Shown here piece by piece: positions 3,500 to 37,211 of a DNA stretch of 64,000 nucleotides. Each line of letters starts with the position of its first letter. Within the stretch, counting starts at the first letter, position 1. Under the pieces are notes generated by a model. The model searched no databases. It saw only the letters and a program-made list of their open reading frames with translations, and had not been told where the DNA came from. Made by a program: the position numbers and the translations under genes. The DNA lies in the NCBI GenBank assembly GCA_043228905.1, contig JBHGNT010000009.1:4650001-4714000 (forward strand), read 5' to 3'. This DNA comes from Azolla caroliniana (Eukaryota > Plantae > Polypodiophyta).

Positions 3500-4053
3500 A
3501 TTGGGAACCGAATGCCGTCCTCATTTTCTTGGTTGACAACCCATCCGATCCCGGTCGGACTTGTATCTACCGTTATGTAGACGGGAGTGCCTTTCTCGTA
3601 GACAGCCTTCCGGAGTGCCGAAGCTGCAGCAAGAGCCTCCTTCATCTTTCGGACCGACTCCGTATGCTCGTCTCGCCACTCGAATTTTCGCCCCTTTTTC
3701 AGCAACCCGTATAGCGGCTCGGCAACGTGGGCGTAATGCGGGATCCATATGTGGTAGAACGCGCATGCTCCCAAGAACCTCCGTACGTCGCCGATCTATC
3801 TCGACGTCGCCGATCTTGACTCGCACGTTTGGGCAGGCCCCGTGTAGTTCCTCGGTGGCGCGCGTCGCCGCCCGTATCTTCCACCCGTGCTTGGTGTTGA
3901 TCGGCCATTTCCCCTTCTTGTAGAAGTCCATGGACATCAGGTTTATTTCCGAACCGTGGTCCACCAGCGCCACCACCGGTTCCTGAACATCTCCGATCTT
4001 CACCGGGGTTTCCGTGGTCGCTCGGGCCCAGTGTGGCCTCGAATAGTGGCTCT
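3500..4053 (-). pseudogene. Protease fused by deletion to the RT end / RNase H start of element B
   Basis: ALVDHGSEINLM protease motif. At ~3790 VKIGDVEIDR joins DVRRFLGACAFYHIWIPHY, skipping the whole RT core that element I retains. Confidence 0.85.
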
Positions 4054-4443
4054 TGTTGTCTGTCTGGCCGGACTAGCCTCAACACAGGTGTCTATCCGAC
4101 ACTTCTCCAAAGGGGTGGTAAGGATTGGATGCTAGGTTACACGCATAAGATGATTACAATTAAGCACAGACGGTAAACAATACGAGATACAGATAAATAC
4201 GCAATAATTACTATTGTATTACTTCCGTCAAAACACTTTACAAATCATCGGATCCTTTTATAGGCATCCGGCAAGGTTACAATCGGTGCGCTTAGGCAAC
4301 CGACATCCGAATCGGTTCGGATCCGGATCGGTACAACTGTACCGAATCCGTCCCTCTGAATAATAATTCTACTATTATTTGCTTCCTATTATCCGATCCG
4401 ATTCCGCCTTCCCACTTGTCCTTGCTCTTCTGACCGGCCAACA
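4054..4443 (-). repeat. Solo LTR of the element C family (390 bp) without a matching TSD
   Basis: Near-identical to 6604-6993 and 16399-16788. Flanks GCTCT and GTGAC do not match. Confidence 0.92.
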
Positions 4444-6603
4444 GTGACGAACGGCAAGGAGGTATCAGGCCGGCGAGGCGGCCACGAACCAAATCGGACC
4501 TTCCGGCAAGGTCAGTGGGCGTAAGGAAGTCCAGTCCTACGGGATCCCCACACTTAACCAGAGACTCCGGCAGTTCGGCCAACGTGGCAATGTGAGACTG
4601 AGAGAGAATGTTGGTGGTGGCGGGAAACGGGACCCGACTACGCGGAAGACACGAGGAGAGTCAGGGAGGGACTCAAACAAAAGACACCCGAATTTCGGCA
4701 AGCATAGAAATGGAGTCCGGTCCTATGGGACCCTCACACCGATCCGGAGACTCCGGCAGTTCGGCCAACGTGGCAACGTGAGACCGAGAGAGAAGGTTGG
4801 TGGCGGCGGGAAACGGGACCCGACTATGCGTAAGACACGAGGAGAGTCAGGGAGGGACTCAAACAAAAGACACCCGAATTTTGGCAAGCATAAAAACGGA
4901 GTCCAGTCCTATGGGACCCTCACACCGATCCGGAGACTCCGGCAGTTCGGCCAACGTGGCAACGTGAGACCTAGGGAGAAGGACGGTGGCGGTAGGGAAC
5001 GGGACCCGATGACACGAGGTAGCGGATAGGGAGCTGGTAAGACGGGCGGACGAAGTGTGAAACCCTCACCGGCCGGTTACGGTTTCGGAAGGAGCCGGTA
5101 AGGGCAAACACAGGGAGGTGTGTCAGGCCGGAAAGGCACACCTGGGACGGAACAAGAGTCTCGCAAGTGGCCATCGCGGGCCGGATCGAAGCGTGACTGC
5201 GGGACGGTGTTCGGCGCGGGCGGAAGACGGCACAAGGGAGGTGTCGGGAACGAGGTGACGTCGTGGACTGCACAGGGTCAGAGTCAAGGGATGACAAGAG
5301 AGGCCGGAGGAGGATCCTCCACACTCACTTCATAGATCTCGGGAGCTTCGTCGAAGTAGCGAAGGCTGACACGGCAAGCCCGGGGTGACAAGCTGGTGGG
5401 GGCGAGGGGACAACGGCAAGCGGAAGACTCGGGACCAGTTGCAGCAGCACGAAGACGGGAAGGGCCATGCGGGCTACTACGGGGTGTTCCTCGGGTGCGG
5501 AGGACACCAGTGTGCGGGTGAGTGGCGATGCGCGATCTGGCCGGGAAACGGGCCGACAAGGCGTGCAACGAACCGGAGTACGGCACAGCCAGTGCCAAAC
5601 AACGGACGAGTGAATGTGGCACACGGAGGTGCCGGAGCGGAAGTACGCGTACTACGGAGATCGCGGTGGAGGACCCATCGACGGGTCGAACGAGCCTACG
5701 GGGAGCTAAGCGCGAAGGAAGAACCGAAACCGACGGATCAAACCGGCAACGAGCCGGGATGCGGATTACGGAAGACCGGTTTCTCACTGGCCGAAATCTC
5801 TCACCCTTCACCGGAATTGGCACGTACCGGTGGACGTGCGGTTAGGTGGGGACGGATGTTGTGAAGAATTTCGTCCAGAGGTGGAAACCGGGAAACATCG
5901 GCTACATCGGCGGGGTGCAGCATGTGTCCTCACCCTTGTACATTTAGTGTGAATAACGAGGGCGCCTTTATGGCGCCGAAGAGTAGTTAAGGCGGGATTT
6001 ATACCACATTGTAACGCATCCCTCTCCTTGTTCTATAAAAGGAAAGGAGCGCCCTTTGTGAAGGGGTTGCCCATTTTGGCGTTAGAGGGTATACCGTTAG
6101 ATTTAGGGTTAGTTACGTTTCTTCTTCTTCTTCTTCTTCTTCTTCTTCTTCTTCTTCCCCCTTCGTGTTTTGCTTAGGGTTTGCTTTGGCTCGGCCTCCT
6201 GTGCAAGACCCCGCTCGGCGCGAGGAGCCGAGAGCTCCCCGACGGCGGCTTGACAGCAGACGATTGTTGTAACCTACCTTGGCCCGGCTCGAAGCCGGGA
6301 ATGTATTCTTCCTTTGTATATGTATACATTTGCGTCTGTCTGTGTATATTTGCGTCTCTGTTGGTGTCGGGTGCTTCCCCTTTCTTGTGTTTCCTGTACA
6401 TAAGGGCGTGAGTCGGGTCGGCATGTGCGTGTGTGTGCGTGTGTGTGTGTGAGTCGGTGTTAAGCGCGCACTCCCTCTCTTTCTCTCTCTCCCTTCGGTC
6501 GCTTCTGGTGTTCTTCAGGGATCCCCGGAAACGGTGAAGCACGACTTCCTACGCTCCATCACTCCCTAGTCCGAGACCCCCATGGTCCCGCCTTTCTCCA
6601 CGC
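4444..6603 (+). mobile_element. Element F: non-coding internal region plus 3' LTR (5857-6603, resuming 16789-16813) of the Ylt1-like family; probably non-autonomous, 5' part lost
   Basis: PPT GGTTAGGTGGGGACGGA precedes TGTTGTGAAG at 5857. TATA CTATAAAAGG at ~6033. The LTR is split by element C and ends CACGACA at 16813. No pol homology in the 1.4 kb before the PPT. Confidence 0.75.
4527..5015 (+). repeat. 186-bp tandem repeat, about 2.6 copies, inside element F
   Basis: CCGGCAGTTCGGCCAACGTGGC recurs at 4567, 4753 and 4939. Confidence 0.9.
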
Positions 6604-6993
6604 TGTTGTCTGTCTGGCCGGACTAGCCTCAACACAGGTGTCTATCCGACACTTCTCCAAAGGGGTGGTAAGGATTGGATGCTAGGTTACACGCATAAGA
6701 TGATTACAATTAAGCACAGACGGTAAACAATACGAGATACAGATAAACACGCAATAATTACTATTGTATTACTTCCGTCCCATTCCTTTACAATTCATCG
6801 GATCCTTTTATAGGCATCCGGCAAGGTTACAATCGGTGCGCTTAGGCAACCGACATCCGAATCGGTCCGGATCCGGATCGGTACAACTGTACCGAATCCG
6901 TCCCTCCGAATAATAATTCTACTATTATTTACTTCCTATTATCCGATCCGATTCCGCCTTCCCACTTGTCCTTGCTCTTCTGACCGGCCAACA
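6604..6993 (-). repeat. 3' LTR of element C
   Basis: Direct repeat of 16399-16788. Minus-strand CCTATAAAAGG TATA at ~6804-6814. Confidence 0.95.
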
Positions 6994-6995
6994 CA

Positions 6996-7011
6996 TGGCA
7001 CGCCCGTGGGA
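6996..7011 (+). other. Inverted PBS-like site (tRNA-Arg type) at the position normally held by the PPT
   Basis: TGGCACGCCCGTGGGA lies 2 nt from the LTR end. It matches the recalled Arg PBS TGGCACGCCC(A/G)GTGGGA with a 1-nt gap. No purine tract at this position on the coding strand. Confidence 0.65.
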
Positions 7012-7043
7012 AAGTGCCTTGCACTTCGAATCCACTCCCGGCC

Positions 7044-10000
7044 TCAGTCTTCCTCCAAAATATCGAGCACACTCTGCTCGATGGTGTCAAGTGGTGCTTC
7101 TTGCTCCTGTTCCTGTTCCTTGCCTGCCTGGTCTCCGACCTCCGGTTGGGTGGGCTGTTCCGTAAAAATTTGCTGCTCCGGCTCTGCTTGATTCTGTGGT
7201 GCCGGTGCTTCCTCACCGCTTCGTCCGGGTTCTTCCTGTTCTCCCTCCGTTCCTGGCTCTGTTCTGTTACCAGTGTCGCTTTTTCCGGTCTCGACTGGTC
7301 GACTCGATATGCCTCCTTCCTCTGCTCTGGTGTCTTCCGGTCTCAGCTCTTCTTCTTCTCCGGCATCGGTCCGCTCCTGCTCTTCTTCAAGTTCGTCTTC
7401 GGGTATTCCTCGTCGGGGTTGTTCGGTGTCGGTTGGTTCATCTTCAGCCGGTCGCGTTCCCTCACCAATAGTGGTTGGCGTCGTTCTTCCCTTAGCTTCC
7501 TGTCGTAACCGGTCCTGCTCGTATCTCTCCAACTCCAACTGAGTTGCGAGCTGCCCGTCATCCAACCTCTCTACCAACCCTCGGATTTCTTTGAGGTGTT
7601 CTTCTGCTAAAGTGTAGAAATCCTCCGACAATTCTTCCCGAATGGCGACGATACTTTCTTCATCCATCTTGTAGAACTGGTCACTGGTCTTCCTCCGATT
7701 CTCGGCATCCGCTCGGAGTGTCTGTAGCTCGGCTGCCTGTTGTGACCACTCCTTCCATAGCTTTTCCGTACTTTCATTGATGCTTGCCTGAGCTCGGGTA
7801 CTCCATCCTGACATGATGAGCTTGATCCGGTCAACCCCTGCCTTAGCATGCGCATAAGCTTCCTGTTTTTCCTTCCTTGCCCGTTTTATAATGTCGGCCA
7901 TTATCTGAGCCTGGGCCTCGTAATCCGCTTTCTGCTTTTCATAGGTACTCTGCAGTTTGCTGATCGTGAAGGTCGATTTTTCCTTTTCTTCATTCCTGAG
8001 CTTGGTCAGGTCCAGCTTTTCCCGCCTTAGCGCCTCTAATTCCTTCCTTCTCTCCGTTGCTTGGGCTATTTCCGCCGACAATGCTTCTTTGTTGGCACTG
8101 ACCTCATCCATCGCTTTAGCCAGGTCTAATCGGGTCTCTTTGAGCTGCTCTTTCAGCTTCTCTATTTGCCGGTCGTAGTCTGCTGCCCGTTTTTTGTTGT
8201 CCGACTCGGCCTGCTTGTGATCTCGGTAGAGACGGTCGAAGTCCTCCGTCTTCTGCTTCAGGCATCGGGTTGCCTGAGCTCTTAACTGATCGTCCCGGTC
8301 CTTCTGTTGTCGGAGTTCTTCCTGCAGTCGTTCTATCTCTTGCTCGGCATGTGGACGTAGTCGGTCCTTCTCCTTTTGCAGCTTCTCTTTTTCTTCTTGC
8401 AGTCGGTCATTAGCGGCTCGACCTTTCCGGAGGCCTTCTTCCATTTTTCGTCTGTCGTCCTCCACCGCTTTCCGCTGCTCCCTTTCTCTTTCCCTTAATG
8501 CCTCCTGAGCTTTTAACTCCTCTTGTAAGGTTTCTATTATTTTTTCGGTCTCAGGGCCGGTTTGCAAGGCTACCGGTTCCGGTTCCGGTTCTGGTTGCTT
8601 CCTTGTTGTCTCGACCGGCTCGGTGACAACTTGTGCTTGTTGAATTCCTTCCCTTGCCTGCAACAGCTCCCCTTGCATTTCCTCGATCTGTGTTCGGAGC
8701 GCGACCAACTCCTGAGTTGTTGTATGCGTCAGCTGTTGCCTACACGTTTCTTCTTTCTCTAACTGGTCCGCTACTCCCGATAACTGCTCCGAAAGCCATC
8801 TCAGCCATTGTGGCTTTGTTCTTCCGGTGTCGGGGTGGCCTTGCTCACTTAAGTCAGGCTGATTTTCCGGCCTCTTCTCTGGCTCCGGCTCCGGCGCTTG
8901 TTCCTTCTTCTTCTCTGGGATGACCGGTTTTCTGAAGTCCGGCCCAACCGGTGTCAGTGCTGCTTCCCTGGGTACGGGTTCCGGTGCTGTTTCCACCTCG
9001 GCTACTGGAGATGGTCCTTGCGCCCTCTGCTGAGTTCTGTCCACTGGTGGAGCCGGTCCTTTCGCCCGTTTCTCCCGACCTTGTCTTGTTGGGAGTCTTA
9101 CCAGTGGTTCGGATGAGTCTTCTGTTTCAGCTTCCTCCTCCGGTGCGGTTACCAGACGGACCTTTTGTATAAAGACCTCTGGTTCCGGTTCCGGTCGTCG
9201 CAGCGTTATATGGATTGGTTTGCGCACTACCGGTTCCTCCTCGGCCGATTTCCCTTTGCCTTTACCTGCCGGTTTTGCCTTTGTTGCCGGTTCCTGTTGC
9301 TGTCGGGATGGTCCTTCCCCCTGCTGTTCTGCTTCTTGCTGGGTCCATCCGGGGGTGTGTTTCTCCAAGATCTGTCAGCGCTTTGTGACCTTTTTCGGCG
9401 TCGTCTCCTGCCGACCTCTTTTCTTTTGTGTGATGGGGAGCACCGGTGGGACTAACACCGTTAGCCATTGTGCTATCCCGGCCCATGGCTTTTTTCCTTC
9501 CACAAGATTTTTGATGGCCTCCTTCAATCCTTCGGTTATGAAATGGAGCCAGTCTATTTGTAAGCCCTCGTACGCTGCTATTAAGAACACTGCCCAGTAC
9601 TTGGCTATGGCTGGGGGACGGGGATTCACGAATCCGTATTCCATCATAGCGCGGGCCACTTCTCCGAACAGCAGGTTCTCTCCGCCCTGCGTTCGGTACG
9701 CCTTGCTGCTGATAGAGTATTCCCCGAAATATTCGAACAGGATTTCACTGGAAGGGTTTTCGATTGTTTGAAGTCCTCCTGCTTTGATCCCCGTGAGCGC
9801 CTGCACCGCTCCTTCTGTGACTTCTGATATATCGATCGATGATGCCGCCTGCTCTGGTTCTGCGTGTGGTGGAGCGTCGGCGATCCGCAACAATCCTTTT
9901 AACCCGTTCTCCTTCATCCATTGGCGTGCCTCTTCCGACAGTACCATTGTTTCGAATTCTTCGTCTGCTGCCTGTTGTTCGGGATCGCGTTGTGTGTGCT

Positions 10001-10148
10001 CTGTGCGTCGGGTCGCTCTTCTGTGCTTCTGCGCCTGTATGTAGGAAAATTCGTAAAAAGTGAGCCCTTCGCAGGCCTGTGTCTTATATAGTGGGTTCTG
10101 CCTCGAGCCGCCCTTTTTCGTTTCCCGCGCATGTTCCTCTCCCGCCAT
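7044..10148 (-). pseudogene. Extra ORF3 of element C (~1030 codons, one in-frame TGA at 9375-9377): globular N-terminus, Pro/Glu-rich linker, long coiled coil, acidic tail
   Basis: ORFs 9375-10148 (257 aa) and 7044-9368 (774 aa) are in the same frame, separated by TGA-CAG-ATC (K-R-*-Q-I-L). The E/K/Q/R-rich helical region spans roughly 400 aa. Confidence 0.8.
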
Positions 10149-10320
10149 AATTAGTATGTCCTTTCTTGTTTACCGCGTGTGAGTGCCCACGTTCCATGCT
10201 TTAAATAGCAAGTACGCGCACGTCCTTTTTTAATGCATGGCGCCTCTTCATTGCATGGTGGCGCTCCCACCTCTTGTGATCTCCCCATCATTACTATGAT
10301 TCGCGTCGATTTTGCCCACG

Positions 10321-10400
10321 TCTTCTTTTTTTTTTTTCTTCTTCTTTTTTTCTTTTTTTTTCTTTTTTTTTTCTTTCTTTCTTTTTTTTTTTTTTTCTTT
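10321..10400 (-). other. ~80-nt A-rich polypurine run just after the pol stop of element C
   Basis: T/C-only tract on the + strand between pol and ORF3. Confidence 0.8.
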
Positions 10401-10412
10401 GTTTGGACCACG

Positions 10413-13400
10413 TCATTTGCTTGTCCCCCCCGATTTGTTCGGGTCGGTTTGTGTGGATACCGGATCCTTTTGTCGGTTTTCCGGGATAGTCTTTGTCATT
10501 ATCGGTGTCGGTTCTTCCTCGGTCCGAATATCTTCAGCAGCGTCCGTCGGTGTCGGTTCCTCATCTTGCCGGATTTCCGGGTTTTGGTTGAACGGGTTGG
10601 CTGGCATATTTCCCTTATACGGCTTTAGTCGAAATCCATTTGCCCACTTGCCGATGACATCTCCAGACAACGTGCCGAGCTGATACGACCCATTGTACTC
10701 CTTGGTGATCCAGAACGGTCCGGTCCATCGAAACCGCAACTTTCCCAGCATGTTCCCCATCCGTGTCTGGAATAGTAGTACCGGTTTCCCGACCTCGAAC
10801 TCCTTTTCATTGCCATGCCGGTGTCGGTCCACGAAGGCTTTTCTCCTCCTTTGCTCCAGTTCGAGTTGTAGTAAGCTGGCTATTCGGTTTTCCTCTAATT
10901 CCAACCACGTCGCCAGCCGGATTCGTTCGGACTCGTTCTCACTTAAGCGCTCCTTCACCTGAATCCGTAAGCTGGGGATCTGGAACTCTACCGGCATGAC
11001 CGCTTCTAACCCGAATGCTAGTCGGAACGAGGTTGTCCGGATGCTGGTTTTGTACGTTGTTCGGTACGCCCATAGCGCGCTTTGCAATTTCGTATCCCAG
11101 TCGGTCCGGTTCTCGTTGACGATTTTTCGTAGGATGTTCTGCATAGTTTTGTTCGTTGATTCCGCTAGTCCATTGGCTTGAGGGTAGTAGGGTGTACTCT
11201 TTTTATGTACCACCGCGTAAAATGACGTCAGGCTTTCTACTACCTGCCCGAGAAAATGTCCTCCTTGGTCACTTATAAGCTCGATCGGGCAACCATACCG
11301 GCACCATATGCACTCGTACAGGAACTTTGCCATGGACGCGGCCGTGTTGTCCCGTAAGGCCTTTGCTTCTACCCATTTGGTGCAATAGTCGGTCGCCACT
11401 ATGACATACCGATTTCCGGTTCGCATTGTCGGTGGTTTGAAGGGACCGACAAAGTCCAACCCCCACTTTTGAAACGGTTCTAAGGGCAAGACCGGGTGGT
11501 GTGGCATCCGGGCCTGCTCTGTGGGTTGGCCCAGTCGTTGACACAAATCGCATTCTCTGCTATACTTCAAGGCATCTTTTAGGGTGGTCGGCCACCACAG
11601 TCCGCTCTGCCATATTTTCCGAGCGGTTGCGTCGCCGGCATAATGCCCGCCGGCAATTCCACAGTGGGCTTCCCTGAGGATTAGATCCTTCTCATCGCTC
11701 CGCACTGCTCGTCTCCAGATGCCATCTGCCCCCTTGTGATAGAGGGTGTCTCCAACCAAGCAGAAATGTCTACTTCTTACTGCTACCCTTTTCCTTTCAT
11801 CGCGGTCCATGTTCTCCGGGGGAACTCCGGTGCTCAGGAACTGATGCATCTCAGTTAGCCATGTGTCTTCATCGGCTACCGTTGTATCCGTTGCCGGTTT
11901 CGTCGTGATCCGGAACAATTCGGCGTCGGGAAACTCATCCTGGACGCCGTCCCCTGCTTCTCCGGATTCGAGTCTGATTAGATAGTCCGCTACCGCATGC
12001 TGCGCCCCGGCTCGGTGGAAAATGTCGAATTCAAATTCCTGTAGTAGCAGTGTCCACCGTGCAATTTTTCCCGTCAGGGATGCCTTCGAGACCAGGTAGA
12101 GTAGTGCCGAATGGTCGACATGGAAGGAAAACTTCCTTCCGAGCAGATAGTGCCTGTACTTTGTGACACTATACACCATTCCCAATGCCTCGCGTTCCGT
12201 CGTAGAGTAATTCCGTTCGGCTTTTGAGAGTTTCCGGCTTGCGTAGTACACCGGTCGGTACCATTTCGGCTCTGTGAGTTGCATCAGAACGCTGCCGATT
12301 GCTACGTCCGACACGTCGACGAAGACGTGAAAGCTTTTACTCCAATCCGGCGGTTGCACCATCGGGGCTTGCGACAGCATAACCTTCAACGCTTTGTAGG
12401 ATTCCTCCTCCGTCTCCGCCCATAGGAAGGGTACCCTATGTACGGCGATATGTAACGGTGTAACGAAGTCCGCGAGGTGCCGTATCATCCGGCTATGCCA
12501 CCTTATTTGGCCCAGGAACCGGCTTAAAGCCTTTGCGTTACTTGGTGCTGGTGCATCGAGAATCGCCTTGACTTTATCCGGATCTACCGCGATTCCTTCC
12601 TTACTCACCACGTGCCCTAGCAACTTGCCGCTTGCCACTCCAAAGACGCACTTGGCCGGATTCAGGCTCAATCGGTACTCGCGGCACTTCTCCAAGCACA
12701 GCCGGAGGTGATCGAGATGCTCTCCGTGCCGGCTGTAGACCGCGAAATCGTCAAGGAAGACCTGCATAAAACCGGGGATATATTCCCCGAAAATTTCCAT
12801 TATTATCCTTTGAAAGGTCGCTAGAGCCGTCTTTAGTCCGAACATCATCACGACCGCGACGAACACCCCCCATTCCGTCACGAACGCTGTCTTCTCTTGG
12901 TCGGCCAGGTTCATTCGTATTTGGTTGTAGCCGCTAAATCCATCCAGGAAGCTGTAAACTTCGTGCCCGGCTACCGCATCTAACACCCCGTCCGTAAATG
13001 GTAGTGGAAACGCATCGGTCACTGTTGCGGCATTTAGTTTCCGGTAGTCCACGCATACCCGGATTTTTCCGTTCTTTTTCGGGACCACCACTATCGGACT
13101 CAGCCAGGTTGCCTGCTTGACCGGTCGGATAAATTCGACCCGGAGGAGCTTATCAATTTCCTCCTTCACCTTTGCCGCATAATTTGGATTCATCCGGTAC
13201 CTGCGTTGAGCAATCGGTTTCGCGTCCGTACTTAGGTGAATTTGGTGCTGATAGAGTTGGGGGTCCAGCCCTCGCATGTCTTCGTACGACCACGCGAACA
13301 CATCCTTGAAGTCTATTAATAATGCTACCATTGCCTTCTTTTCTTCCTTCGGCAATTCCTTTGCAATATTTACCGGTCGGGGCTTGTCTGCTGTGCCGAG

Positions 13401-16346
13401 GTCCACCTCCTCGAGTTGGGATGCTTTTACCCTCTGGGATATCGTCATTTCCCTCTCTAGGGATTCCTGTGCTTGTCGCAGTTCCCGGATCGCCGCTTGG
13501 TCCGGTTCTTCCGGCGTCGTAATGTACGGTTCTACTGCCGCCGTGATATCCACCTCAAATAGTGGGACGATTTGTGGGTGTTCCTCGAGGTACCGCTCGA
13601 CTTCCTCGTCTGGTAATCCCTCCAACATGTTAATGCTTTCCGCATACAATGGAGTTGCTTCCTTACTGGTGATCACCCGTGGTTGCGTCGTTACTCGTAC
13701 CTTTGTTTTCCCTCGCCGGAATGTGATCATGTTCTTTTGCCAGTTCTGCTTGATATGCGCCGTTCGCAGCCATGGTCGTCCTAGCAGTAGGGGGTACGCG
13801 CCTTGTACATTCAGCTGCAGCACCATGGCCGATATCTGGAATACGTGGCCTCCGATCGTTATTTCCAAATCCCGGATAAGCCCGGTCGGTCGGACTGAGC
13901 TAGTATCCGCCATGCGTAACTAGAAGGGGCATGGTTCCCATTCCCGGATGCCCAGGTCGCTGCATGTCTGTTGGCTGATGACATTTACCCCGGAGCCTCC
14001 GTCAATAATCGTTCCAGCAATTTCCTTTCCTTTCACGATTGCCGTGATCGCCGGGCTACTTGTATCGACCACCGCTGGTCCTTCCTCCGGGTTGGAGAAG
14101 AATGCCGGTGCTGGCGTCGGCTTCGGTTTGCTGACGGATGCCTGTAGGTCTGCCGTAAATCCTGGCACTAACTGTAGTAGTCGTGCTAACGGCAGCACGA
14201 TTTGACAGTCCTGTAGCGCTTGCCACGTCGGGTTTTCTCCTAGCTGTATGATTTCTTCGTCTTTTGGCATATTTTGGTCTCTTACTTCTGCCGCATTCTA
14301 TTCATTGGCCTCCTTGATCCATTGTGTCGCTTGTTTTCTGATTGCCTCCTGGGCTTCCCACTCGGCGGTCTTTCCCTTTGACCGGGTTGTGACCTGCTGT
14401 ACTTCTGTTATTTCGGCTGTAACCATGTTGACTTCCGGCTGCTTGTCATAGCGTTTGCTTGGGCATTGGTTACTATAGTGGCCTTCCTTGCGGCAGTAAT
14501 AACAGTACACCTTGTGACTGTTGCTCGTTTCTCCTTTGTCCCCGGTTTGGAGGGTGGGTATGCTCCGGCGGTCGTCTTCGGTTTTTCGGTTATCCGGTAC
14601 CGATACTGGGTTGTCATTCCTTGCTGCCCCCCTACGTTCCTCTCTTCGGAAAAATCCACGCTTCTGATTCCGTCGGAAATTTCGGTTCCCTTGTCGCCTC
14701 TCTTCTCTGCGTCGGTCGTATTCCGGGGATTCGTCTCGGTCGTGCCGGTCCCGGGGGTAGCTATCTTTGCGTCTCTCCTCTCGGTCATAGTTGTCGCGTC
14801 TTCTATCAGCGTATCCTTGTCGCCGCTCTTCTCTGCGTCGGTCGTCTTCCGGGGATTCGTCTCTGTCGTACCGGTCCCGGGGGTAGCTATCTCTGCGTCT
14901 CTCCTCTCTGTCATAGTTGTCGCGTCTTCTATCAGCGTATCTGTTACCGCGTTCGCGTTGGTAGCGGTCGTCTCTCCGGAATCGATCCTCGTCCGGGTTC
15001 TGATTGCGCGGTTCTATGTGTCGAACCGGTGCTGCCTGCCGATTTAACAGGTTATATTCGCATCGGTCCGTTGTATGGGCTCGAGAGTTGCAAATCACAC
15101 ATTGTGTCCGCAGGGTGCAGTCCACTGTTGAGTGCCCCGAATTTAGGCATGTTGTACATTGTAAGGCCTGTCGGAACCTCAGGTCTTCCTCCTTTGGGAG
15201 TGCCCGGTGTAACATCCCCATCGACAAGAAGGGGCTAGTCTTGTCCATTTCTAAAACCCGATCAATAACTTGGTCCATTGTGCTGGTTTGGAAATCAAGG
15301 ACTCCGCACATTGTTCGAAGTGGCTCTTTCAGTGCGGCCAGAAAGACTGCTTTGGCTTCGTCTTCGGGTGGTGCTCTTGTCAGTTGGCTGTGCAGGGTCT
15401 GGAACCGAATGATGAATTGTGGCATAGTCTCGTTCTCTTCCTGCCGGGTGGTGTAGAACTGCCCGACCAATTCCCTTTGCTCAAATTGTCTGTGAAAAAA
15501 CCTGAGGAATCTGGCCTTCAAGGCATCGAATGTGGCAAAGCTGCCCGGTAAGTGCTTTGCGTGCCATTGGGCCGCCGGTCCTTCTAAGGTTATGCCGAAT
15601 TCGGCGATTTTGGATCGTTCGGCTTCGGGCTCCGTCAGTCTTTGGGAGATATGGTTGGCTTCCCATGTTTGGAGGAATGCGTACACGTGTGCCTCCGCAT
15701 CGGCCTCATCCCGGTACTTTGGGTATGGGTACGGCATCGTGTCGTCCAACTGACTCTCCTGTTTCCTCCTCTCTCTGTCCGCTGTTGGCGTTGGTGTGAG
15801 AACCTTTGGTTCCTCCGCGGGTGTTCCCGGTGTCCGGTCCGTTGGTTCCTCCGCGGGTGTTGTCGGTATCCGCTCCCTCGGTTCCCTCGCGGTTGTTGTC
15901 AGTATCCGGTCAGCCTTCCTCGGCGGTTGCCGGTCACCGAATTCCAGGGTTCTTTCTTCCTCTGGCGCCGGTGTTACTGAGTCTTCCGACCCCTCGTCCT
16001 CCCGGTCGTTTGGTGTGTCGTGGCTGCTTTTATACCGGGATGCAACGCTTCCGTCGCTTTCCGACTCCGCCTCAAGTGTTGCGAATGCTTCCGAGTCCCC
16101 GTCGCCCGCGGCGAGCGTCTGCAGTATCGTTTCCACCTCTTGCAGGCTTGTTATGCTACTGCCTTCGTCGGGGATTTGCAGAACCCGGAACTGCAGTGCT
16201 TCTTCTGCGACTCTCCGAAGAGTTTTGGAGAATGACCGATCCCGCCGGATCTCGTCGACGGTTTGCTGCAGGGCTTCCCGTCGTTGCTCGCGTTCGGTGT
16301 ATCGTCTCCCTCGTTCGGTGATGTGGTCGTCGTTTGGTCTAGACAT
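10413..16346 (-). pseudogene. Single-frame gag-pol of element C (~1978 codons) with two in-frame TAG stops
   Basis: ORFs 14298-16430, 13920-14270 and 10413-13913 share one frame, with stops at 14298-14300 and 13920-13922. Motifs: three CCHC knuckles, protease IIDGGSGVN, RT FLDGFSGYNQI and FLDD, RNase H, INT HHCC and WGLDF/ISDQG/NGLAE, WTGPF. Confidence 0.92.
14691..14941 (-). repeat. 126-bp (42-codon) tandem duplication in gag encoding an Arg/Asp-rich tract
   Basis: TTGTCGCC recurs at 14691 and 14817. The protein repeat YADRRRDNYDREERR...EERRQG occurs twice. Confidence 0.9.
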
Positions 16347-16398
16347 CCATCCCCCGGTTGTCCTCTGCTTTTTGCAGGAATCGTAATCGCCAAAATAG

Positions 16399-16788
16399 TG
16401 TTGTCTGTCTGGCCGGACTAGCCTCAACACAGGTGTCTATCCGACACTTCTCCAAAGGGGTGGTAAGGATTGGATGCTAGGTTACACGCATAAGATGATT
16501 ACAATTAAGCACAGACGGTAAACAATACGAGATACAGATAAACACGCAATAATTACTATTGTATTACTTCCGTCCCATTCCTTTACAATTCATCGGATCC
16601 TTTTATAGGCATCCGGCAAGGTTACAATTGGTGCACTTAGGCAACCGACATCCGAATCGGTCTGGATCCGGATCGGTACAATTGTACCGAATCCGTCCCT
16701 CCGAATAATAATTCTACTATTATTTACTTCCTATTATCCGATCCGATTCCGCCTTCCCACTTGTCCTTGCTCTTCTGACCGGCCAACA
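16399..16788 (-). repeat. 5' LTR of element C
   Basis: Direct repeat of 6604-6993. Followed on the minus strand by CTATTTTGGCGATTACG, a weak PBS candidate. Confidence 0.95.
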
Positions 16789-16813
16789 CACGCAGGCGCG
16801 TAACAACACGACA

Positions 16814-37139: not shown

Positions 37140-37211
37140 TCATCGTAGCCGAAATCTCACTTCTTCTCTTCTTGGCACGTACCGGAGGACGTGCGGTTTG
37201 GTGGGGGTGGA

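Follow-up and report, generated by a model that had tools for sequence, protein, structure and literature searches.

Structure of element C

The window analysed here, a 64,000-nt stretch of Azolla caroliniana DNA (contig JBHGNT010000009.1), carries on its minus strand a Ty3/gypsy retrotransposon copy, element C (6604-16788), which was delimited by its paired long terminal repeats (LTRs) and target site duplication (TSD). This element and four related families have no polypurine tract (PPT) before the 3' LTR and display in its place a split copy of the 3' half of a tRNA, from which we propose that a host tRNA probably primes the plus strand.

The 5' LTR (16399..16788) and the 390-nt 3' LTR (6604..6993) run in direct orientation from TG to CA, are identical at 386 of 390 positions and are flanked by the 5-bp TSD CACGC, both beside the 3' LTR (6599..6603) and beside the 5' LTR (16789..16793). 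Between them, Pfam recognised gag with a zinc knuckle, followed by reverse transcriptase (RT), RNase H and integrase, and this order together with the LTR pair and the 5-bp TSD characterises the element as Ty3/gypsy (Metaviridae). The gag frame, read from stop to stop, spans 14298..16436 (Retrotrans_gag and zinc knuckle), the protease region 13920..14297, and pol 10413..13919, with RT, RNase H and integrase and no second, archaeal-type RNase H (aRH). All of them read on the minus strand, as does a TATA-like box in the LTR, CCTATAAAAG; hence 6604-6993 is the 3' LTR. The minus-strand orientation, the near-identical LTRs and the perfect TSD given in a preliminary description of this DNA are thus upheld.

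A tRNA-like site at the position of the polypurine tract

PMC5371799 treats priming of the plus strand from a PPT as a shared trait of LTR retrotransposons and retroviruses. As the preliminary description had stated, there is no PPT in the last 45 nt before the 3' LTR of element C: positions -17 to -3 are 47% purine, purine runs within the last 40 nt reach a length of 4 at most, and the closest purine-rich 13-mers lie about 250 nt upstream, within coding sequence.

What occupies this place (6994-7035, minus strand) is a sense copy of tRNA positions 49-76, split by a hairpin insert and with its CCA ending 2 nt before the LTR. Read in the direction of the element, it begins with a copy of positions 49-58 (7026..7035; the T-stem 5' strand plus TTCGA, with A at position 53 in this copy) and continues with the hairpin inserted between positions 58 and 59 (7012..7026; here 6 bp, with a loop of 3-4 nt). 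A copy of positions 59-65 follows (7006..7012, position 59 being altered in element C), joined directly to a copy of positions 67-76, that is, the acceptor 3' strand, the discriminator and CCA (6996..7005). The last 2 nt (6994..6995) form a spacer which reads NG in all five families described below and is predicted, by analogy with HIV-1 processing, to be the dinucleotide removed by integrase. A third copy of the LTR at 4054-4443, identical to the 3' LTR at 380 of 390 positions, shares its end base, so that the edge of the LTR can be set at 6993 and 6994-6995 form a 2-nt spacer.

The tRNA 3'-half mimic abutting the LTR that the preliminary description reported is therefore present as a split match ending in CCA, but it is one base short, which had been missed: position 66 is absent in 5/5 families. 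The 5' primer binding sites (PBSs) of two relatives, L016 and L027, retain a base at position 66 and thereby give internal support for a one-base loss in the site. Similarly, the 6-bp hairpin described in the T-loop does exist as an insert between positions 58 and 59, but only a core of 3-4 bp is conserved, and 6 bp are found in the element C copy alone.

The split pattern had a single match in the window and none in 100 dinucleotide shuffles; as it was derived from the site of element C itself, this shows only that the pattern is not common. Rfam gave no match on 6500-7300, and ARAGORN found no tRNA in the window or in 74 metagenome loci, so that the full cloverleaf of a tRNA gene is absent. 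No conserved 5' acceptor strand lies upstream of the site in the five families, hence no cloverleaf is formed in cis, and the self-fold of the site is unremarkable (z -1.46).

For comparison of tRNA 3' ends we made use of 61 tRNA genes in 67 phage-contig loci, retrieved with a T-arm pattern. One of them, the tRNA-Arg(TCT) of L118, is identical to the counterpart of the site over its last 10 nt and its T arm. The matching host tRNA would probably be Arg(UCU). Nine of the 61 phage tRNAs (within L091-L157) have a CUA anticodon and were called Pyl by ARAGORN; they are likely amber-reading tRNAs.

Conservation of the site among relatives

Metagenome contigs were searched with an integrase alignment in 8 of the 64 parts of the collection, which gave 74 loci, 34 of them at no less than 51% identity. 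A loose motif scan was applied to 40 of these loci, including 19 of the 34 close ones (the other 15 being contigs of at most 2.8 kb, too short for the junction), and found the site in 4/40, while a strict scan found it in 1/74. Five close loci had at least 2.9 kb past the integrase or a junction elsewhere, and four of them carry the site: L016, L024 (a permuted contig with the site upstream of the LTR), L027 and L053. The fifth, L028, ends within the extra open reading frame (ORF) before any family LTR. The four site-bearing families are 68-87% identical to element C in integrase, and in each of them the site lies on the gag-pol strand, measures 40-41 nt, and is followed by NG and TGTTG.

Thus, the site is present and a PPT absent in all five clade members with a 3' junction (element C, L016, L024, L027 and L053). 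The longest purine run before the 3' LTR is 3-4 in each of the five, so that the PPT expected of Ty3/gypsy elements is missing, and CCA stands 2 nt from the LTR in every family (as CTA in L024). Among the five families, mean pairwise identity reaches 0.81 in the site but falls to 0.52 over the preceding 100 nt and to 0.54 over the first 100 nt of the LTR. The preliminary description had proposed looking into other copies for a PPT and for conservation of the motif; 4/4 relatives have no PPT at this position, and 4/4 have kept the site despite unrelated flanks.

The hairpin stem differs in sequence in every family, around a core of 3-4 bp and a loop of 3-4 nt. In the inner hairpin 18 of 20 cells are paired, with five double changes, and only 1 of 500 shuffles was as good; both unpaired cells come from L053, in which the stem is shifted by one base. 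On five related rows, this covariation is suggestive.

Matches resembling a PBS on the reverse strand of L059, L062/L064, L068 and L075 were left out of the site count, and inspection of L062, L064 and L075 revealed no such site beside a recognisable family LTR. Among viral contigs, a single query found no pol relative, and there were no exact junction matches; 11 loose-pattern matches and one distant locus (L158) were obtained. Five bacterial pattern matches in GTDB were taken as chance. Self-comparison of the long loci yielded no LTR pair around an integrase.

Population sequencing offered a further view of the site. Part of the region is covered by 20 runs from 13 studies, with no RNA run among those listed, and 6 of the 24 listed runs were analysed. 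Organisms D and E yielded no contigs, which does not prove that they lack the site. Among the 40 best-supported differences in 6800-7300 (71 further rows exist), none falls between 6953 and 7030. At position 7031, which corresponds to tRNA position 53, the tRNA-matching base (G) accounts for nearly all the depth of organism C and for about one third in organisms A and B. Within 6976-7060 the sole change among those listed, a non-exhaustive set that omits 7031, lies in the hairpin loop. In this same interval, depth on the site is at least 10 times that of the upstream flank, and contigs leave the site into unrelated sequence on both sides, as is expected if many families share it. In two runs, depth at 6997-7020 amounted to about 130-165k and 220-420k, versus 3-6k and 5-20k at 7039-7060; these values are summed over contigs, may include ordinary PBS matches in 6996-7005, and are not copy numbers.

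A separate primer binding site for the minus strand

The minus-strand PBS of element C (TGGCGATTACG; 16382..16392, minus strand) was recognised by sequence comparison with relatives, lies 6 nt from the 5' LTR, and corresponds to a different tRNA end from that of the 3' site. The preliminary description had seen only a weak match here. This assessment has to be revised, since L024 carries TGGCGACCACG at the PBS position after its LTR, which shows that this is the real PBS position. Element C differs from L024 by two C-to-T changes, both still able to pair as G.U in RNA. In Ty3 the PBS is inherited and not recopied from the tRNA, according to section 2.2 of PMC5371799 and to PMC7472051, and drift of this kind is thus expected.

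A normal PBS was identified in three of the four relatives, L053 being the fourth: in L016, L024 and L027 the contig runs through the LTR into a PBS 4-7 nt past it. In these three, site, LTR and normal PBS follow one another in the gag-pol direction, which excludes the site as an ordinary PBS of the other strand, a check that the preliminary description had called for. The PBSs of L016 and L027 correspond to the same tRNA end as the 3' site, whereas those of L024 and element C (TGGCGA..) correspond to another, which excludes pairing of the site with the element's own PBS. The plant tRNA for the L024-type PBS is presumably Arg(UCG). An animal PBS sharing its first 11 nt is labelled R or W in PMC4724089.

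The 5' PBSs are short (10-14 nt), stand 4-7 nt from the LTR behind a spacer of C-N plus a T run, and are followed by a small hairpin (window 16340-16398; L016 about 5508-5575; L027 about 4195-4249; L024 after its LTR). Both element ends read CA|CN.

Origin of the site

In an integrase tree of 58 rows the five site-bearing elements fall within one 18-row clade (support 100/100, stem 0.46), within which element ends were read for these five rows; L024 and L053 fill under half of the alignment columns. A junction scan of 30 loci, with ends read by eye, gave two outgroups in which both LTR junctions are readable, L036 (41%) and L039 (44%). In each of them a G-rich PPT directly adjoins the LTR, and the PBS is TGGCGCCGCTGCC, which differs by a single base from the Asp/Asn PBS that ATHILAfinder (10.64898/2026.03.20.713144) gives for ATHILA. 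PPT candidates in L045 are unconfirmed. Judging from these sequences, the simplest history would be a single switch from a PPT to the tRNA-like site on the branch between L039 and the clade.

Further observations were made on these and other elements. In PPT-bearing gypsy elements a hairpin stands a few bases upstream of the PPT (L039 about 412-456; window 37177-37211 and 5817-5860). L036 has a second PPT-like tract right after the integrase (about 3750-3770), some 2.8 kb upstream of the 3' PPT, which is a candidate internal PPT. In L038 (2-7375) a gag-pol frame of 2458 codons runs past the integrase into a second aspartic-protease-like segment with a DTG motif.

A proposed model for tRNA-primed plus-strand synthesis

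Based on these findings, we consider it probable that in this clade, which has no PPT, the conserved site matching tRNA positions 49-76 serves as a dock for a second host tRNA, probably Arg(UCU), and that this tRNA primes the plus strand. The PBS observed after the 5' LTR would prime the minus strand, whose synthesis would copy the site, and RNase H would clear the RNA to leave single-stranded DNA complementary to the tRNA. The tRNA is predicted to pair with this DNA in three stretches (67-76, 59/60-65 and 49-58); position 66 would form a bulge, and the DNA hairpin would be extruded between positions 58 and 59. RT would then extend the CCA end through the 2 nt and the LTR, and RNase H would remove the tRNA at the junction. 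The bulge, which lies 10 bp upstream of it, may determine where this cut falls, in the way that distortions do for Ty3 RT. Finally, integrase would trim the 2 nt to produce the TG start seen in the genome.

The geometry of the site agrees with such a role. A plus-strand primer must end just before the LTR, and HIV-1 integrase removes a dinucleotide from the DNA end (PMC5893875); CCA plus 2 nt fits both. Outside the insert, the five families depart from the tRNA sequence at eight places, five of which (G53A twice, G68A twice, and U55C) still allow wobble pairing between the tRNA and minus-strand DNA. When co-folded with the unchanged 3' 28 nt of the phage tRNA-Arg(TCT) of L118, the minus strand gives the same three-way junction in 5/5 families, at -24 to -33 kcal/mol with RNA parameters and -18 to -23 with DNA parameters, values that only bracket those of an RNA:DNA hybrid; L118 is moreover a stand-in found with a site-like pattern, so that the strong pairing is partly circular. 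Shuffles reached -6 to -8 kcal/mol (0/100 as good) and the sense strand -4 to -13. A split 5' PBS was not supported by co-folding.

A58 of tRNAs is normally methylated and unable to pair. We lean, with somewhat less assurance, towards a more specific model in which the whole clade would prime both strands with host tRNAs, in some families with two different ones, through a three-way junction. Its hairpin would be located at the modified A58, and RNase H would take its cutting position from the single bulge, 10 bp away from the CCA end. According to section 4 of PMC5371799, local distortions make the RNase H of Ty3 RT cut 10-12 bp downstream. The missing position 66 makes a distortion only with the tRNA as partner, which would explain why a deletion that weakens pairing has been retained; by analogy with this distant enzyme, the bulge may be a signal for RNase H cutting. 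A spacing of 18 nt in RNase H action had been considered as the reason for the hairpin and was dropped, the polymerase and RNase H sites of Ty3 being about 13 bp apart (PMC5371799).

Apart from the composite depths and the circular folding partner mentioned above, several points weigh against tRNA priming. Three of the eight departures break the pairing with the tRNA: U55A in L027, an extra base plus C75T in L024, and G59T in element C. G-to-A is a common decay mutation in methylated repeats, which makes the wobble count weak, and variation clusters at positions 53-55, the bulge of the site's own hairpin, so that self-structure accounts for part of the conservation. The hairpin upstream of the PPT in other gypsy elements may be a wider and older cis signal. 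With a polymerase-RNase H spacing near 13 bp, the cut in a docked tRNA might fall within the 59-65 helix. The comparison comprises five families, probably all from one group of host plants, and the rows used for covariation are related. The proposal draws on sequence and predicted folding, and Arg(UCU) is the probable identity of the host tRNA.

Alternative roles for the site

The foremost alternative is a primer in cis: the element's own RNA at the site would survive RNase H, be cut after CCA and prime the plus strand, as an atypical non-purine PPT derived from a captured tRNA piece. No new trans step would be needed, and both the position and the 2-nt spacing are those of a PPT. In all five families the fold of the sense RNA is an irregular hairpin that leaves the 3' tail free, G59T in element C is accompanied by a change that extends this hairpin, and the PPT-bearing relatives have a hairpin upstream of their primer. 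However, such an RNA remnant would always be fully paired to its DNA copy; nothing would then hold 27 tRNA positions or favour wobble changes, and the structure would be unable to form inside the hybrid. The conserved loss of position 66 would have no effect, a tRNA-processing enzyme would find no 5' acceptor strand, and the fold is not unusually stable. We therefore regard a cis primer as unlikely and, of the two options raised in the preliminary description, favour the tRNA acting in trans as the probable one. Its claim that a tRNA-Arg primes the plus strand holds in so far as the site replaces the PPT, is conserved in the clade and has a fitting geometry; the priming itself is still a proposal from sequence, and the label Arg(UCU) a probable one, backed by the phage tRNA-Arg(TCT) with an identical 3' end.

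It is improbable that the site acts instead on the genomic RNA, through packaging, binding of a tRNA-handling protein, recruitment of tRNA or RT, or ending translation of the extra ORF, while a short remnant beside it serves as primer. A covarying hairpin must act single-stranded, although all its pairs are Watson-Crick and fit either strand, and in element C the site starts 8 nt past the stop of the extra ORF. Meanwhile, CCA lies exactly 2 nt from the LTR in 5/5 families, where the 3' end of a primer must lie; the 100 nt upstream in L016 are AT-rich, unlike in the other four; and the sense RNA, being the tRNA's own sequence, is unable to pair with the tRNA.

We give very little credence to pairing of the 3' site with the element's own 5' PBS, for RNA circularisation or minus-strand self-priming. 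The two are complementary over 10 nt in L016, and self-priming is known for Tf1/Tcn1-type elements (PMC6317226), but the PBSs of element C and L024 differ (TGGCGA..) with the 3' site unchanged, the L027 sites would mismatch at position 9, and the plus strand would be left without a primer. Least credible of all is a relic, either an inverted PBS/tRNA copy left by one template-switch accident or, if the opposite strand were the packaged RNA, an ordinary PBS. Element C does have stops in its coding region, but five families keep the site between flanks diverged to about 50% identity, with compensatory changes. In L016, L024 and L027 a single contig contains the site, the LTR and a normal PBS, all in gag-pol orientation, and on the opposite strand the other LTR is not preceded by a PPT. 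An accident confined to a single copy is refuted by the same site in four further families.

Other features of element C

The coding region of element C carries stops on either side of the protease region, in which a DGGSG motif was read from the sequence, and inside the extra ORF. A related protein, P0001 (1901 aa), displays the gag and pol domains in one continuous frame and is 91% identical to element C over pol, from which it follows that the family has an intact-frame member despite the stops in this copy. The closest named relatives of the element C proteins are from Marchantia and Riccia (about 38-44% identity), which indicates that the host is a land plant.

The extra 3' ORF (7044..10169, minus strand) is in sense orientation, with its internal stop at 9375-9377, and its terminal stop sits 8 nt upstream of the tRNA-like site in this copy. 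It had no Pfam match. The likeness of its N-terminal part to Transposase_32/ATHILA ORF1 clusters scored 0.88, below the 0.9 line, and is a lead only; the C-terminal part is charged and repetitive. Compared with the ORF of L036 it gave a BLASTP E of 0.11. The ORF is common to the clade, with 33-66% identity in its first part.

The LTR copy at 4054-4443 has no TSD and is bordered by the protease region of one element on one side and the internal region of another on the other; it is probably a recombination scar between two insertions. Tandem duplications occur within gag (126 nt, 14689-14940) and in the neighbouring element (186 nt, 4523-5080).

Comparison with known systems

Judged by make-up, and not by a tree with labelled Athila references, we place element C on the OTA side of Ty3/gypsy, closest to Athila. 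It shares with Athila the order Gag-PROT-RT-RH-INT, the lack of an aRH, the 5-bp TSD, a length of about 10 kb, and a short T-rich spacer between the 5' LTR and the PBS; it also has an extra 3' ORF, whose ATHILA/Transposase_32 likeness is weak. In addition, a PPT and a PBS resembling the ATHILA Asp/Asn PBS are present in L036 and L039, its nearest mapped relatives. In contrast to Athila, element C has no PPT, and its PBS is not of the Asp/Asn/Ala type. Among Brassicaceae elements, 97% conserve the ATHILA PPT junction (10.64898/2026.03.20.713144). Moreover, the extra ORF of element C is in sense, whereas those of Athila are listed as 3' reverse by Neumann et al. 2019 (PMC6317226).

The same source defines OTA|Tat by the aRH domain and describes a tRNA-Arg PBS as common in TatIII, Ogre and Retand. 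Element C resembles these Tat lineages in a PBS that is probably of the tRNA-Arg type, the extra 3' ORF and the 5-bp TSD, and differs from them in the absence of an aRH; matches bearing this domain (PF13456) fall on another branch of the integrase tree. Membership in Phygy/Selgy was rejected, as these have a 4-bp TSD, a Trp or Ala PBS and no extra ORF according to that source, whereas element C has a 5-bp TSD and an extra ORF.

With Ty3 of Saccharomyces cerevisiae, as portrayed in PMC5371799, element C shares the Ty3/gypsy enzymes, an inherited PBS, and a split tRNA-binding site that engages the acceptor stem and the T arm. The split site of Ty3 is on RNA and primes the minus strand, its plus strand starting from a 12-nt PPT, whereas that of element C would lie on minus-strand DNA at the position of the PPT.

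The 3' tRNA-like structures of plant RNA viruses and of Mauriceville-type retroplasmids are complete cis folds at an RNA 3' end that start the first strand. The likeness to them consists in the use of a CCA end in replication, as proposed here for element C. The site of element C differs in being internal, in having no 5' acceptor strand, and in its position at the start of the second strand.

Implications for plus-strand priming

In titles and abstract openings, with subscription journals outside the coverage, we found neither tRNA-primed plus strands nor a PPT-less clade of this kind, and the site motif had no match in the readable supplements of PMC6317226. Annotation pipelines that require or score a PPT would miss such elements or mis-orient them, since on the opposite strand the site looks like an ordinary PBS. 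The success of a clade that lacks a PPT means that the PPT rule can be dropped. If a tRNA does prime the plus strand, RT is able to initiate on a tRNA:DNA hybrid, and the site would offer a natural way to test where RNase H decides to cut. Short oligonucleotides, one tRNA and a natural RT would suffice to test the claim.

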